In this document: positions 1 to 5,515 of the stretch, one piece after another
How the letters are laid out: each line of letters opens with the position of its first letter
How positions within the stretch are numbered: the stretch's first letter is position 1
DNA from: a virus
Taxonomy: Duplodnaviria; Heunggongvirae; Uroviricota; Caudoviricetes
Direction: 5' to 3' (one strand)
Virus record (IMG/VR): IMGVR_UViG_2547132127_000011
Length of the DNA stretch: 16,794 bases
Position numbers and translations under genes: made by a program
The notes under the pieces: model-generated
The model's input: the letters and a program-made list of their open reading frames with translations, nothing else
Database searches by the model: none
Told to the model about the DNA's origin: nothing

Positions 1-1230
1 ATGAGCAGAGCACTTAACAAACTGAGCGATACACAGCTGAGGAAAATCAACGGCACACCCGCCCAAAAAACAGCCTTTCTTAATGACGGTGGAAACCTGA
101 GCGTCAGGCATTCAACCAGTGGCCTTTTAACCTGGTATTTCACTTACAGGGCCGGAACGGGAAGGGGGGCACCACCGGAACGCATTAAGCTGGGAAATTA
201 TCCTGATCTGAGCCTGAAATCAGCCAGGGAAAAAGCCGCCCAGTGTCGCGCATGGCTGGCAGAGGGGAAAAATCCACGTCATGAGCTTAATTACACCGTA
301 CAGGAAGCGTTAAAGCCGGTAACGGTTGGCAATGCGCTCACCTACTGGCTTGAGTCGTACGCAAAGGAAAACCGCGTGGATTATGCCGCCCTGAAAAAGC
401 GCCTTAATAATCACGTAATACAGCACATTGGTGCTATGCCGCTGGATAAATGCGAGCTACGGCACTGGCTGGCCTGTTTTGACCAGGTGGCAAAGCGAAC
501 GCCTGTTACTGCCGGATTCTTGCTACAGACGTGCAAACAGGCGCTTAAGTTCTGCCGGAGGCGGCGCTATGCAATCAGCAACGTTCTTGATGATATGAGT
601 GTGGCGGACGTTGGGAAAAAACCGGATATAAGCGAGCGTGTCTTAAGCACCAAAGAACTGGGCGAATTATTGCAGGCACTGGACAAAAAAATATTCTCCC
701 CCTACTACATCGCGTTAATCCGCCTCCTGATTGTGTTCGGATGCCGGACGGTAGAACTGAGGTTATCGGAGATCAGCGAGTGGGATTTTACCGAAATGCT
801 CTGGACCGTGCCGAAAGAACACAGCAAAACGAAGGTGGCAATATTCCGGCCCATACCGGAAGCAATACTGCCGTTCGTCACGCAGCTGGTGGAGCAGAAC
901 AGGCACACGGGCTTATTGCTGGGGGAAGTGAAACAGGAAACAAGCGTGTCGCAGTACGGCAGATTAGCGCACAGGAGGCTAAATCACCCTCACTGGTCAC
1001 TACATGACATCCGGCGCACCTTTACAACGATGCTGAACGATTTAGGCGTGGATCCTCACGTCGTGGAGCAGCTTACAGGCCACCAGATGCCAGGAATGCA
1101 GCGAGTTTATAATCATTCCCGTTATCTGGATGCTAAACGCAATGCGCTGGATATGTGGACGGAGCGGTTAGGGATACTGGCGGGAACACATGAAAACGTA
1201 ACCACGCTACCAGTAGCCAGAAGAAAATAA
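1..1230 (+). CDS. int: Tyrosine recombinase / integrase, P4-like
   Basis: 409-aa ORF with C-terminal catalytic region (HDIRRTFTT...LTGHQ...VYNHSRY) typical of the phage integrase family; N-terminal region resembles P4-type integrases. ORF starts at window position 1, so the true start and the left attachment site lie at or beyond the window edge. Confidence 0.88.
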   Translation: MSRALNKLSDTQLRKINGTPAQKTAFLNDGGNLSVRHSTSGLLTWYFTYRAGTGRGAPPERIKLGNYPDLSLKSAREKAAQCRAWLAEGKNPRHELNYTVQEALKPVTVGNALTYWLESYAKENRVDYAALKKRLNNHVIQHIGAMPLDKCELRHWLACFDQVAKRTPVTAGFLLQTCKQALKFCRRRRYAISNVLDDMSVADVGKKPDISERVLSTKELGELLQALDKKIFSPYYIALIRLLIVFGCRTVELRLSEISEWDFTEMLWTVPKEHSKTKVAIFRPIPEAILPFVTQLVEQNRHTGLLLGEVKQETSVSQYGRLAHRRLNHPHWSLHDIRRTFTTMLNDLGVDPHVVEQLTGHQMPGMQRVYNHSRYLDAKRNALDMWTERLGILAGTHENVTTLPVARRK

Positions 1231-1604: not shown

Positions 1605-1793
1605 GTGTTAAGCACTGATCGGTTTATACGTGAAAAAGAATGCGAAAAGCTAACAGGCCTTAGCCGCTCATGCCGCTACCGCCTGGAAAAGGCCGGACAA
1701 TTCCCATCACGTCGTAAACTTGGCGGTCGTTCCGTTGGCTGGTCTTTATCCGAGGTTCTGGCCTGGAAGGATAGCTGCAAGGCAGTTCATTAA
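1605..1793 (+). CDS. alpA: AlpA-family transcriptional regulator (prophage CP4-57 regulatory protein family)
   Basis: 62-aa ORF, GTG start preceded by AGGGGG; motif LTGLSRS..YRL...G.FP....LGGRSVGW..SEV..W is the AlpA helix-turn-helix signature; sits immediately downstream of int as in P4-like elements and PICIs. Confidence 0.8.
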   Translation: MLSTDRFIREKECEKLTGLSRSCRYRLEKAGQFPSRRKLGGRSVGWSLSEVLAWKDSCKAVH

Positions 1794-1937
1794 TCACGCT
1801 GGCGGCACGCAGCCGCCACACATCAATCATCTGAACACAGAGCTATAACCATGAAGATTGAATATACGCCAGAACGTGGGCGGGGATTCGTTCGCCCTGG
1901 TGAAACTGGAAAACCACAAAATTGGGGTTTTTCAGGC

Positions 1938-1965
1938 ATAAAAAAAGCGGCCCCGAAATGGAGCC
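1938..1965 (-). terminator. Candidate intrinsic terminator for leftward transcription
   Basis: On the minus strand: GCGGCTCC-ATTTC-GGGGCCGC stem-loop followed by TTTTTTT. On the plus strand the same hairpin is followed only by CTTTCT. Confidence 0.35.
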
Positions 1966-2296
1966 GCCTTTCTGAACAGATAACCCGCTGCGCCGTTTGT
2001 GTGTGTGATCCCAAACATAAGCACGGGGATGATAGCCGCTATCAGGCTGGTGGGCAATGCAATCAGTCTGGTTCAGTGCGTTGCCATAACTGCGAAGTTC
2101 TCTCCTTTGATGAGTATTCTTTAAGGTACTTCTCAAGGGCAAAAGAACACGGCGCGAATCGTTCTGATTCATGCTCTTTCTTTCTGCGTCGTCTTTTTCG
2201 TGCAGGTGATGTTTTTTCGGTTGATTCTTCGTTGGTCATTGTGTGCGCCTGTAAAGCAATGCGCCGTAGTACCTCACACCACGGCGCTGATAGTTT

Positions 2297-2476
2297 TTAT
2301 CCTTTGGGTTCTATGCCGCGTTGCTGTAATTCTTTGCGGATTATTCGCTTTATCCAGGCAGCAAGAGAATCATCGCCGTCCTGTTGTTGTGCCTTTTCCA
2401 TCTTTTCCCGTAAGTCAGGATCTAAACGGAACTGGAACGGAGGATTACCACGCCTTTCGTTTTTGTGTGTTGACAC
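2297..2476 (-). CDS. Putative ribbon-helix-helix (Arc/MetJ/CopG-like) DNA-binding protein, 59 aa, GTG start
   Basis: Not in the ORF track (below length cutoff). Translation VSTHKNERRGNPPFQFRLDPDLREKMEKAQQQDGDDSLAAWIKRIIRKELQQRGIEPKG shows a beta-strand (PFQFRL) then helix-turn-helix pattern like Arc repressor (PQFNLRWPREVLDLVRKVAEENGRSVNSEIYQRVM). GAGGTG lies 8 nt upstream of the GTG. Confidence 0.45.
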   Translation of the reverse strand: MSTHKNERRGNPPFQFRLDPDLREKMEKAQQQDGDDSLAAWIKRIIRKELQQRGIEPKG

Positions 2477-2499
2477 GTTAATTACACCTCAGGTAATGT
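2470..2499 (+). promoter_or_regulatory. Candidate sigma-70 promoter (TTGACA - 18 bp - TAATGT) for the rightward small-gene/primase operon, overlapping the start of the divergent RHH gene
   Basis: TTGACA at 2470..2475 and TAATGT at 2494..2499; flanked by TGTGT/ACACA dyads (e.g. GTAATGT...ACATTAC 2493..2523) that could be operator sites. Confidence 0.3.
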
Positions 2500-2605
2500 A
2501 TTTATGTGTAGTGACACATTACACACAATCAACACAAAAAGCAAAGCCCCGCACTGTAGGAGCAGTAACGGGGCTTCTAACCAACAACGTAAACTAGGAG
2601 CCGTT

Positions 2606-2806
2606 ATGGTTGCCGTAAATCATATACCACACCTTGTACACACACAAACGGCCTTTGTGTGGCGTTTTCTGGCACTGAGTGCCGGAGAATCCCAAATCAT
2701 CCACGTAACCGCTTGGACGGAACGCGAAGCGCGTAGCCGTTGCCCGTCCGGTTGTGTTGCTGTATTCGCCGCCCGTATTCGTCAGGGGGAAACCTATGCA
2801 CAATAA
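2606..2806 (+). CDS. Hypothetical small protein (66 aa)
   Basis: Internal ATG of track ORF 2504..2806 with AGGAG 5 nt upstream; first gene of a translationally coupled chain ending in the primase. Confidence 0.5.
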   Translation: MVAVNHIPHLVHTQTAFVWRFLALSAGESQIIHVTAWTEREARSRCPSGCVAVFAARIRQGETYAQ

Positions 2807-3470: not shown

Positions 3471-3770
3471 ATGAAACTTAAATATTCTGGCTTAACTGCC
3501 AGTGGCAACACTCACCCTAAATTTACGCGCGGTGATATTTACCGCGACCAGTACGGCGGCATGGTAACGATTAAAGGCGTGGCAGAACGGCGCATCACCT
3601 ACCGCCGTGAAGGTTACGAATATGATTGCGTGATGCCTGTTTATCAATTCCGGCGTGATTTCACGCTGGTACAGGCAGCGCCCCGCAGTAAACCAACCAG
3701 CAGGGAGAAAGCACGCGCCAATATTCAGGAAATAAAAAAGATGCTTAACGTATTCAGGGGTAAAAAATGA
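3471..3770 (+). CDS. Hypothetical protein (99 aa)
   Basis: ORF track; GGAG about 11 nt upstream; stop overlaps the primase start (ATGA). Confidence 0.55.
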   Translation: MKLKYSGLTASGNTHPKFTRGDIYRDQYGGMVTIKGVAERRITYRREGYEYDCVMPVYQFRRDFTLVQAAPRSKPTSREKARANIQEIKKMLNVFRGKK

Positions 3771-5515
3771 AACTGGCACCGAACGTAAAAAAACAGCCAC
3801 GCGGAATAAAACACAAAGACACAGAGGTAATTATCTTTGCGGGTAGTGATGCCTGGTCGCACGCGAAACAATGGCAGGAGCAGGATGGCCCCGCATCCGG
3901 CGATAATGTGCCGCCTGTGTGGTTTGGGCCAAATCAGCTTGCCGAACTTGATGCACTGAAGATTGTTCCGGATGGAAAAAAACGCGTAAGGCTGTACCAG
4001 GCCGGAGAACTGGATTTGGTGGAGACCAAAAAGATTGGTCAGAAGCTGGCGGCGGCAGATATTCAGGACGCAAATTTTTACCCCGAAGGAATGCACGTCC
4101 AGAAGTGTGAAAACTGGCGGCGCTATCTGAATGCTGAGCGTGAAAATATTGCCGCAGGGCTTACCATGCCGGAGCAGAAAAATACGCAACTGGCACAAAT
4201 GGCAGACAGTGAGCGCGCGCAGCTGCTTGCCGAGCGCTTTGATGGCGTTTGTGTGCATCAGGAAAGTGAAATCGTTCACGTATGGCGCGGCGGGGTATGG
4301 TGTCCGGTCAGCACAATGGAACTTAGCCGCGAAATGGTGGCGATCTATTCAGAGCACAGGGCCACTTTCAGCAAGCGCGTAATCAATAACGCCGTGGAAG
4401 CGTTAAAAGTTATTGCCGAACCAATGGGCGAGCCGTCCGGCGATTTGCTGCCGTTCGCCAATGGTGCGCTTGACCTGAAAACGGGGGAATTTTCCCCGCA
4501 CACGCCGGAGAACTGGATCACCACGCACAACGGCATTGAGTACACGCCACCAGCACCAGGGGAGAACATCCGCGATAACGCGCTAAACTTTCATAAATGG
4601 CTTGAGCACGCAGCCGGAAAAGACCAGCGCAAGATGATGCGTATATGTGCCGCGCTGTACATGATTATGGTGAACCGGTACGACTGGCAGATGTTTATTG
4701 AGGCCACCGGAGACGGCGGGAGCGGTAAAAGTACATTCACACACATAGCCAGCCTTCTGGCAGGGAAACAGAACACGGTAAGCGCTGAAATGACATCGCT
4801 TGATGATGCTGGTGGACGTGCGCAGGTTGTCGGGAGTCGTCTTATCGTCCTGGCTGACCAGCCGAAATATACAGGCGAAGGAACGGGCATCAAGAAAATC
4901 ACGGGCGGTGACCCCGTGGAAATTAACCCGAAATACGAAAAGCGTTTCACGGCTGTAATCAGGGCGGTGGTGCTGGCGACCAACAATAACCCGATGATAT
5001 TCACCGAACGGGCCGGAGGTGTGGCACGTCGTCGCGTGATTTTCCGTTTCGACAATATCGTTAGTGAGGCCGAAAAAGACAGGGAGCTACCGGAAAAGAT
5101 TGCGGCTGAAATCCCTGTCATTATCCGCCGATTGCTGGCGAACTTTACCGACTCTGAGAAAGCACGGGCTTTACTACTGGAACAGCGTGACGGTGATGAA
5201 GCTCTGGCAATAAAGCAACAGACGGATCCGGTTATTGAGTTTTGCCAGTTCCTGAATTTTCTGGAGGAAGCACGCGGCCTGATGATGGGCGGCGGTGGCG
5301 ATTCAGTGAAGTACACGACCAGAAACAGCCTTTACCGCGTCTATCTGGCGTTTATGGCGTACGCAGGCAGGAGCAAACCGCTAAACGTAAATGACTTTGG
5401 CAAGGCTATGAAGCCAGCCGCGAAAGTTTACGGACATGAATATATTACGCGGAAAGTTAAGGGAGTAACGCAGACTAACGCAATAACAACAGACGAGTGC
5501 GACGCGTTTTTATAA
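3767..5515 (+). CDS. Replication protein: P4-family primase C-terminal / D5-N / SF3 helicase-type P-loop NTPase (PICI pri-rep-like)
   Basis: 582-aa ORF with Walker A TGDGGSGKST, a Walker B-like hydrophobic run (RLIVLADQP), and downstream KKITGGDPVEINPKYEKRF...RRRVIFRF block characteristic of the phage/plasmid primase P4-family C-terminal domain. Confidence 0.85.
   Translation: MKLAPNVKKQPRGIKHKDTEVIIFAGSDAWSHAKQWQEQDGPASGDNVPPVWFGPNQLAELDALKIVPDGKKRVRLYQAGELDLVETKKIGQKLAAADIQDANFYPEGMHVQKCENWRRYLNAERENIAAGLTMPEQKNTQLAQMADSERAQLLAERFDGVCVHQESEIVHVWRGGVWCPVSTMELSREMVAIYSEHRATFSKRVINNAVEALKVIAEPMGEPSGDLLPFANGALDLKTGEFSPHTPENWITTHNGIEYTPPAPGENIRDNALNFHKWLEHAAGKDQRKMMRICAALYMIMVNRYDWQMFIEATGDGGSGKSTFTHIASLLAGKQNTVSAEMTSLDDAGGRAQVVGSRLIVLADQPKYTGEGTGIKKITGGDPVEINPKYEKRFTAVIRAVVLATNNNPMIFTERAGGVARRRVIFRFDNIVSEAEKDRELPEKIAAEIPVIIRRLLANFTDSEKARALLLEQRDGDEALAIKQQTDPVIEFCQFLNFLEEARGLMMGGGGDSVKYTTRNSLYRVYLAFMAYAGRSKPLNVNDFGKAMKPAAKVYGHEYITRKVKGVTQTNAITTDECDAFL

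Follow-up and report, generated by a model that had tools for sequence, protein, structure and literature searches.

What controls the rightward operon of a satellite island, and which of two frames that overlap on opposite strands takes part in this control? These questions are raised by a 16,794-nt stretch of viral DNA (IMG/VR record IMGVR_UViG_2547132127_000011, Caudoviricetes), hereafter called the window, which by its gene content is a capsid-forming phage-inducible chromosomal island (PICI), i.e. a P4-like satellite. Between the regulator gene alpA and the Icd-like gene that opens the rightward operon, the original prediction, made from the sequence alone, had placed a leftward gene for a ribbon-helix-helix (RHH) regulator beside a divergent control region. 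It had regarded the long open reading frame (ORF) that crosses this region on the plus strand as a probable antisense artefact, and had counted a GCCCCG/CGGGGC hairpin among the elements of the control region. The core of this proposal was confirmed; the two side claims, on the plus-strand ORF and on the role of the hairpin, were overturned. In the explanation that we consider best, and on balance probable, the region would be an immunity or regulatory switch of the satellite made up of four parts, with an RHH repressor, its operators, a short antisense RNA and an ORF that bridges the leftward operon. For comparison 80 loci were fetched, with one genome per species; promoter positions were counted in 73 related loci from many genera.

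The repressor gene, its operators and its promoters

On the minus strand, positions 2476..2297 encode a protein of 59 aa with a GTG start and a TAA stop (2299..2297). Its proposed identity as an Arc/MetJ-type RHH protein is supported by homologues, by the ratio of non-synonymous to synonymous substitution rates (dN/dS, omega), by a profile match and by the predicted fold. Homologues were sought among 5.8 billion proteins and fell into 117 clusters, almost all with exactly 59 aa and spread across Enterobacterales, Pasteurellaceae and Orbaceae (Escherichia, Serratia, Pectobacterium, Pantoea, Yersinia, Proteus, Xenorhabdus, Edwardsiella, Mannheimia and Frischella). Compared with a 92%-identical E. 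coli copy, the gene showed 12 synonymous and 2 non-synonymous changes, with an omega of 0.03; for the same pair the opposite frame that shares its wobble positions had an omega of 0.15, and the remaining frames had values above 1. The 59-aa gene is under strong purifying selection.

Profile search matched the protein to phrog_228, 'Arc-like repressor' (E 2.1e-6), and to the N-terminal model NF041551 (YlcI/YnfO; 20 bits, E 5.1e-4). In hhalign it was aligned with Arc (E 0.007) and Mnt (E 0.003), both with low probability, such that the segment PPFQFRL was paired with PQFNLRW of Arc and PHFNFRM of Mnt, the strands with which these two repressors read DNA. A profile search of the PDB sequences with the RHH alignment gave chance hits only. 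The structure prediction (AlphaFold2) placed helices at residues 20-33 and 38-52 after an extended N-terminus, with a pLDDT above 90 at residues 21-50. This is the layout of the RHH superfamily, an N-terminal beta-strand and two helices in about 45 residues, and only 7 residues of tail follow the fold. The Foldseek matches of the model in the PDB were nearly all RHH proteins (NikR, Arc 1par, CopG, AmrZ, PutA and the DNA-binding domains of antitoxins); for Arc 1par the TM-scores were 0.68 (TMq) and 0.77 (TMt), and the small size of the protein kept the E-values weak (1.7 or higher). The family is present in the databases yet undescribed, and nothing on this repressor was found in the literature.

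The C-terminal half of the homologues is near constant, and their beta-strand splits into classes. If the beta-strand reads the operators, class-specific palindromes are expected at both operator positions. The dyads noted in the original prediction are present as a 21-nt direct repeat (2460-2480 and 2501-2521, offset 41 nt), each copy of which contains the palindrome TGTGTnnnnACACA. With at most one mismatch this palindrome has only two matches in the 16.8-kb window, where 0.43 would be expected. The predicted operator O1 (TGTGTGTTGACACG, 2464..2477) overlaps the -35 element of the rightward promoter P_R as well as the start codon of the repressor, and O2 (ATGTGTAGTGACACAT, 2504..2519) covers the places where transcription from P_R and from the leftward promoter P_L is predicted to start, the centres of O1 and O2 being 41 bp apart. 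At least five beta-strand classes were found, each with its own palindromes at the same two places of the spacer: GNPPFQFRL, the class of the window, with TGTGTnnnnACACA; RSPQYQMRL with ACATGGTAATTACCAT; KTDQYQIRL with TTGTAATTACAA; RSPQFPMRL with GGTATATACC; and GNKQIALRV with CAAGTGTATGACA. The operators covary with the beta-strand.

The promoter candidate of the original prediction was located at 2470..2499 on the plus strand, with TTGACA at 2470-2475, TAATGT at 2494-2499 and a spacer of 18 nt. In 69 of the 73 loci a TAnnnT motif stands 17-18 nt past the -35 element of this promoter, P_R, which was not listed by a simple promoter scan because TAATGT agrees with TATAAT at 3 of 6 positions only. 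The candidate -10 element of P_L, the promoter of the repressor gene, is TAATGT on the minus strand (2521..2516); a minus-strand TAnnnT is found 42-48 nt from the start of the P_R -35 element in about 70 of the 73 loci. P_L faces P_R, with O2 between them. A third promoter, P_as, which would drive the antisense RNA described below, is predicted on the minus strand at 2619..2647, with a -10 element TATGAT (2624..2619) and a weak -35 element TTGTGT (2647..2642); a minus-strand TAnnnT occurs 35-40 nt to the right of an invariant TCTAACC in 72 of the 73 loci. All three -10 elements are conserved. With 117 homologue clusters for the RHH ORF and spacer elements at fixed positions in 73 loci, these features exceed what chance would give, and the earlier view of the spacer as a repressor-controlled switch of the rightward operon is supported. 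The RHH protein would bind this DNA, and very probably it shuts P_R and regulates P_L through O1 and O2.

Two further observations concern the repressor gene. In E. coli islands with the same flanks (L001, L085 and L086) there is a mosaic breakpoint within the gene near position 2340: the C-terminal half and everything to the left of it are shared with the window, and the N-terminal half, the beta-strand and the operators differ. Judged from sequence, a swapped gene half together with swapped operators is the mosaic expected of an immunity determinant. In addition, two leftward repressor modules follow one another in some E. coli islands (L002, 3000-4900; L087, 1500-3620), in which a 59-aa RHH gene is followed by a gene for a 101-aa YlcI/YnfO-type RHH protein or by a second 59-aa RHH gene.

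The hairpin before the Icd-like gene and a predicted antisense RNA

The Icd-like or Kil-like gene (2606..2806, plus strand) is the first of the rightward operon. It matched NF033153 (E 6e-18) and phrog_1743 (E 2e-22); its relationship to Icd and Kil rests on these two models only, because BLASTP of the window ORF against ORF137 of P4 gave no alignment. The hairpin upstream of it lies where the original prediction had seen it (GCCCCG at 2547-2552, CGGGGC at 2571-2576), and it is a terminator on the minus strand, not an element of the plus-strand leader. The plus-strand hairpin has many C-A and A-C mismatches that become G-U pairs on the minus strand; 25 such pairs were counted there, compared with 4 on the plus strand. 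Of 48 loci, 46 had the stabler fold on the minus strand, and a T-rich tail follows the hairpin on the minus strand only (about 7 of 12 positions, versus 1-2). The RNAalifold consensus energy was -21.1 kcal/mol for the minus and -11.1 kcal/mol for the plus strand. In the minus-strand alignment 95.7% of the cells were paired, with compensatory changes at 12 of the 17 pairs; this level of pairing was reached by none of 500 shuffles, and controls slid along the alignment were 36-53% paired. The hairpin would be the minus-strand terminator of a short antisense RNA.

This predicted cis-antisense RNA of about 75 nt would run leftward from about 2612 to 2538, its ends being set by the conserved -10 element of P_as and by the terminator. 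It would consist of a first stem-loop (2611..2579) that carries an anti-Shine-Dalgarno (SD) sequence in its loop, and the terminator stem-loop (2577..2543) with a U tail after it. The window sequence of the RNA folds at -30.5 kcal/mol (z -4.5) on the minus strand, compared with -25.5 kcal/mol (z -2.5) on the plus strand. The first stem-loop corresponds to a second, small hairpin upstream of the terminator, which covaries as well (GC/AU at one pair) and has 12 G-U pairs on the minus strand versus 3 on the plus strand. In 37 of 44 loci the loop of this hairpin, read on the mRNA strand, contains the SD sequence, which gives the anti-SD sequence on the antisense strand; in the window the SD sequence of the Icd-like gene, AGGAG (2596-2600), sits in the loop of this covarying hairpin. 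By position, the predicted RNA spans both the SD sequence and the ATG of the Icd-like gene. We regard the existence of the RNA as likely on these sequence features, and are less confident that it would block translation of the Icd-like gene.

The -10 element of P_as coincides with codons 5-7 of the first rightward gene. The residues encoded there vary (His, Ser, Cys, Asp, Tyr, Phe and Gly) and the T, A and T of the motif are fixed; moreover, the same 5' sequence precedes an Icd-like gene or a primase gene, depending on the locus. The constraint is therefore on the DNA and not on the protein. The initial 13 codons or so behind the SD hairpin (MADTQHNQTRPKF) were seen to be equal in genes for a 60-aa Icd-like protein and for a 900-aa primase (L022 of Xenorhabdus, 2880-2930, and others), and such a shared head fits an embedded regulatory DNA element, namely the antisense promoter.

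Rfam gave nothing relevant, either at the gathering score over the whole window or at E up to 10 in 1780-2900, the best match being a terminator-like likeness to the rnk leader; with the same thresholds and in the same regions the C4 and isrK models, by which relatives of P4 CI are detected in other islands (PMC10111431), had no match. No description of the antisense RNA was found in the literature. A plus-strand RNA of the CI/c4 type was considered for the hairpin and ruled out by the G-U asymmetry and the composition of the tail.

The loop of the terminator (2557-2571) was also observed to repeat the region from SD to ATG (2595-2609), as TAGGAGCAGTAACGG compared with TAGGAGCCGTTATGG. The repeat would give the antisense RNA of this island a second anti-SD sequence; of the loci examined, just the window and Shigella locus L004, which is identical to it, have the repeat. 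A role of the repeat as a decoy ribosome site was not adopted, since the repeat is limited to these two loci.

The plus-strand frame and the proposed switch

The plus-strand ORF at 1851..2597 (248 aa; the frame is stop-free from 1794) proved not to be a mere artefact: it has the position of eta in P4, its frame is stop-free in many loci of unrelated sequence, and in sister loci it is fused to the Icd-like sequence. This eta-like 'bridge' ORF spans the entire leftward module and the promoter region in antisense and crosses P_R (2470-2499). Its frame is that of alpA, from which it is separated by the alpA TAA (1791-1793) alone, as in the Shigella locus L004 and the E. coli locus L001. It begins, with the ATG at 1851, after alpA and upstream of the internal promoter, as in the Eta/Kil layout of P4, and it ends 9 nt before the Icd-like ATG (2606), in a different frame. 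In 25 loci with an adjacent alpA, the open frame starts between -119 and +77 nt from the alpA stop. It either continues in frame with the Icd-like gene up to the stop codon of that gene or, as in the window, closes in the SD hairpin just before the ATG.

Between the repressor stop and the first leftward terminator the bridge frame is stop-free in 38 of 54 loci. Among segments of at least 200 nt it is stop-free at 15 of 29 loci, a figure that falls to 0 of 29 in every one of the five remaining frames. The stop-free segments are not homologous between genera, and the bridge sequences are alike only where they are antisense to the RHH gene and the spacer. By our own calculation, wobble sharing with the RHH frame lowers the number of antisense stops only modestly. 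Within the repressor genes, T is the last base of 7% of the codons that precede CAN and of 39% of those elsewhere, which matters because NNT followed by CAN makes a TGA on the other strand: Phe14, which stands before Gln, is encoded by TTC in 33 and TTT in 8 cases, and Phe16 by TTC in 23 and TTT in 18. In the tandem arrangement of L002 each module is crossed by its own rightward open frame, the second one of 314 codons. From these frame counts, selection on the bridge frame seems quite likely.

The bridge ORF has 993 homologue clusters, many of which have 310-434 aa and go by the name 'Icd-like' or 'ash family'; a Phage_ASH domain is present in some (e.g. the sister ORF P0165). Over its first 150 residues it is 83-99% identical to the start of these 310-434-aa sister ORFs, which carry the Ash or Icd-like part in frame. 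In L091 a 380-aa ORF is the window ORF plus an in-frame Icd-like part whose own N-terminus (MVAVNHIPHL...) is identical, and the strand opposite to it encodes a 101-aa YlcI/YnfO repressor and a homologue of a 58-aa ORF that follows the repressor gene in the window. The nesting of the Icd-like gene in the long ORF is thus present in sister loci and not in the window; Pfam found no domain, Phage_ASH included, in the 248-aa product.

In the switch that we propose, P_L would drive the 59-aa repressor, and possibly the 58-aa ORF, up to a terminator at 1940-1973. RHH dimers on O1, over the -35 element, and on O2, over the start sites, would shut P_R, the promoter of the Icd/Kil-like gene, the primase gene and the packaging genes, and the repressor would probably regulate P_L, its own promoter, too. 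A leftward RNA of about 75 nt, started within the first Icd-like codons and ended at the GCCCCG/CGGGGC terminator, would pair with the SD hairpin and the start codon of the Icd-like mRNA and form a second, post-transcriptional lock. When upstream transcription runs on through alpA, polymerase would cross about 750 nt antisense to the repressor operon; translation of the bridge ORF on the alpA transcript, like that of eta in P4, would then prevent termination and bring ribosomes to the start of the Icd-like gene, which lies 9 nt beyond the bridge stop, so that both locks would be bypassed. We infer the action of the antisense RNA, the translation of the bridge ORF and its role in anti-termination from sequence. 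Translation-dependent anti-termination by the bridge ORF, for which P4 is the analogue, is put forward tentatively. The same holds for the wider idea, possible rather than probable, that the repressor operon and the long ORF overlap in an obligate sense/antisense arrangement, that the long ORF is selected solely to stay open and not for its protein, that synonymous codon choice in the repressor avoids stops on the opposite strand and that translation of the long ORF lets AlpA-driven transcription override protein as well as RNA immunity.

By analogy the switch works most like immI of P22 joined to the eta/kil read-through device of P4, and at the sequence level it is a member of neither. With immI of P22 (mnt, arc, sar RNA, ant) it shares small RHH repressors on a strong promoter and, as predicted here, a short antisense RNA over a ribosome site; the divergent repressor resembles Mnt, and its beta-strand aligns with Arc and Mnt. 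In P22 an antisense RNA of the sar type, from a promoter inside the controlled transcript, covers the ribosome site (PMC2629481), and the features predicted here are of this type: a promoter in the target, opposite orientation, an intrinsic terminator and, by position, overlap with the ribosome site. In contrast to P22, there is no match to Pfam Arc or in Rfam, the controlled genes are Icd/Kil-like and replication genes instead of an antirepressor gene, and one repressor with two operators 41 bp apart is found in a satellite element with an additional read-through ORF upstream.

With P4 (vis/alpA, eta-kil, PLE, CI RNA) the window shares the gene order int, alpA/vis, a long ORF that starts before the internal promoter, a Kil/Icd-like gene and the primase gene. 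In the summary of Forti et al. (1999) given in PMC10111431, eta begins before an internal promoter and is coupled to the homologue of alpA, and translation of eta keeps transcription from terminating. No gene is annotated opposite eta in P4, where immunity is due to the same-strand CI RNA, whereas here the RHH operon lies antisense inside the long ORF and the RNA would be cis-antisense; in addition, the long ORF of the window stops 9 nt before the Icd-like ATG and is not in frame with it. The immI region of P1 and P7 (c4 RNA, icd, ant) likewise has an Icd-like first gene. In P1 an RNA is aimed at the ribosome site of icd. The c4 RNA, however, is a same-strand RNA that acts by loop complementarity, and C4 had no match in the window. 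Like Stl and Rpr of Gram-positive PICIs, the repressor is divergent from the replication and packaging operon, but those are large helix-turn-helix proteins, not 59-aa RHH proteins, and here int and alpA are on the strand opposite to the repressor; derepression by a helper-phage protein is not in evidence here. A 2018 survey considered it uncertain whether Gram-negative PICIs have such a repressor (PMC6092414). Sister repressors at the same position bear the RefSeq name YlcI/YnfO (NF041551), after E. coli K-12 prophage proteins, for which no function is described and which are listed only as 'prophage-associated protein' (PMC13612085).

Four other explanations were weighed. The version of the original prediction, in which the RHH repressor forms an early-operon switch, the plus-strand ORF is a meaningless artefact and the hairpin is in the rightward leader, keeps all of the RHH and operator evidence, and the plus-strand product is rich in Cys, Ser and Arg and lacks a Pfam domain. 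Wobble sharing does reduce the frequency of antisense stops somewhat, but it fails to explain 200-650 nt of stop-free, unrelated sequence at 15 of 29 loci when no other frame is open at any; nor does it explain why the frame opens at the alpA stop or why sister loci have in-frame Icd-like fusions, and the G-U asymmetry and T tail assign the hairpin to the minus strand. We consider it fairly unlikely. Another explanation, which we consider unlikely, is that the plus frame is open either because it encodes an Eta/Ash-type regulator with a function of its own or as a relic, with AlpA as a processive antiterminator, and that its translation as such has no role in anti-termination. Sister ORFs with a Phage_ASH domain and an Icd-like C-terminus fit this, as does the conservation of the N-terminal 150 residues among E. 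coli islands, and in Pseudomonas AlpA is described as an antiterminator (PMC9998450). Except where they are antisense to the RHH gene and the spacer, however, the bridge sequences are unrelated across genera, and the window ORF has neither an Ash domain nor an Icd part and shows an omega of about 0.5.

For the hairpin and its flanks, a plus-strand leader with an immunity RNA of the P4 CI or P1 c4 type, or an attenuator, is suggested by the Icd/Kil-like gene behind it, as in P1 and P4, by the fold of the plus strand given above and by the CI/c4 relatives of other Gram-negative PICIs (PMC10111431). With C4 and isrK unmatched even at E 10, with the G-U pairs and the consensus energy both favouring the minus strand and with no T run after the hairpin on the plus strand, this is very unlikely. 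A toxin-antitoxin or defence pair formed by the RHH protein and the 58-aa ORF is extremely improbable: RHH antitoxins are common, weak matches to VapB (E 0.012) and a HicB-like family (E 0.2) were obtained and some homologues are named 'HicB family' by their sources, but the partner ORF is limited to Escherichia and Shigella, with unrelated ORFs or none elsewhere, the RHH protein has just 7 residues past its fold, and PADLOC found nothing.

Several points count against the proposed switch of repressor, antisense RNA and bridge ORF. Pfam gave no RHH family for the 59-aa protein at E up to 1, and its 20 bits against NF041551 are below the curated cut-off of that model (30 bits). The -35 elements of P_L and P_as are weak, and the simple promoter scan detected neither promoter. 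The loci share ancestry, so that the locus counts overstate independence. Stops interrupt the bridge frame at roughly a third of the loci, so it is not universal, and the omega of its product, about 0.5, indicates little amino-acid constraint, which fits a frame that is 'translated but unconstrained' but also weaker explanations. Finally, AlpA-family proteins are able to serve as antiterminators (PMC9998450), in which case translation of the bridge would be unnecessary.

If the proposed switch is true, an RHH repressor of swappable class, a new antisense RNA and a bridge ORF would together be the long-sought immunity system of Gram-negative PICIs. The variable spot that follows alpA appears in a study from 2025 on capsid-forming islands just as a gene 'of unknown function' (10.1101/2025.02.11.637232). 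This spot now gains testable content: a repressor of exchangeable specificity with its operators, a predicted antisense RNA unmatched in Rfam and a read-through ORF. The locus would also offer a natural case for selection on overlapping frames of opposite strands.

The leftward operon, the island and its annotation

After the TAA of the repressor gene the same frame stays open, as the original prediction had stated, through 19 codons to an ATG at 2239, the start of an Arg-rich ORF of 58 aa (2239..2063, minus strand; both coordinates are 1 modulo 3). This relation does not amount to read-through. None of the homologues of the 59-aa protein was a fusion with the downstream ORF, and the frame mostly closes soon after the stop codon, whose position is kept across homologues and whose identity varies. 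The 58-aa ORF may be the second gene of the leftward operon. It matched phrog_21027 (E 3e-12, unknown function) and had no match in Pfam; its 24 homologue clusters are all from Escherichia and Shigella, with the first 40 residues conserved and a C-terminal tail that varies by frameshift. Its omega was 0.30-0.48, compared with 0.41-0.58 for the opposite (plus) frame, and dN/dS cannot choose between the two because they share wobble positions. A short FALExF/YxxxY motif was seen again in gene two of another module; since the wobble-sharing plus frame is similar there too, the motif does not tell the frames apart either. The chances that the 58-aa ORF is a real protein gene are about even.

Loci of other genera have unrelated ORFs, or none, behind the repressor gene, and in Xenorhabdus a terminator follows 46-54 nt past the repressor stop. 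At this place a Rahnella locus (L046, 3184-3336) was found to have an ORF of 50 aa whose signal sequence resembles that of a lipoprotein (MKKIVLGLAVIIIALIIFKSC), and small cargo genes of various kinds may be carried by the leftward operon. A minus-strand hairpin between the two leftward ORFs (2261..2287; -19.3 kcal/mol, z -3.1) has a weak T tail and is conserved in the E. coli loci. The terminator that the original prediction had placed at 1965..1938 is real and strong. It extends over 1940..1973 with a core stem at 1947-1968 and seven T residues at 1946..1940, and folds at -21.7 kcal/mol (z -5.5) on the minus strand, on which it acts, versus -12.3 kcal/mol on the plus strand. It is conserved in the E. 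coli loci, and other genera have an equivalent.

The island is the window itself, inserted between roxA and phoQ of Escherichia or Shigella, and its left half is laid out as in satellite P4. The order is int (1..1230), alpA (1605..1793, plus strand; AlpA/Vis family, Pfam Phage_AlpA E 5e-18), the switch region, the Icd-like gene, small ORFs and primase (3767..5515), followed by capsid, protease, portal, HNH, terS and terL genes and then phoQ. Of 5426 complete E. coli genomes, 1392 matched the 1.1-kb region 1800-2900 in part or in full, and 87 of these covered 80% or more of it. Among 50,697 phage records blastn with the region gave no match, and tblastn with the Icd-like protein gave a single match, an induced-prophage record.

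Public annotation in part overlooks the repressor gene in the same way as the ORF track on which the original prediction had remarked. RefSeq sometimes calls the RHH gene, as hypothetical or as YlcI/YnfO family, and elsewhere a plus-strand 'Icd-like pseudogene'; such inconsistent records include NZ_LR134079, NZ_CP074742, NZ_CP027579 and others. The fusion of the plus frame with the Icd-like sequence in sister loci explains why an 'Icd-like pseudogene, missing C-terminus' is annotated in some records and the minus-strand genes in others. In RM6927 the Icd-like coding sequence has been stretched upstream to abut the start of the repressor.

Directly 3' of the alpA stop, at 1800-1817, a GC-rich hairpin (GGCGGCACGCAGCCGCC) was observed. 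The segment that contains it (1794-2058) is 92-97% conserved among E. coli islands, which is above its surroundings, and the hairpin could be an attenuator or a protein-binding site.

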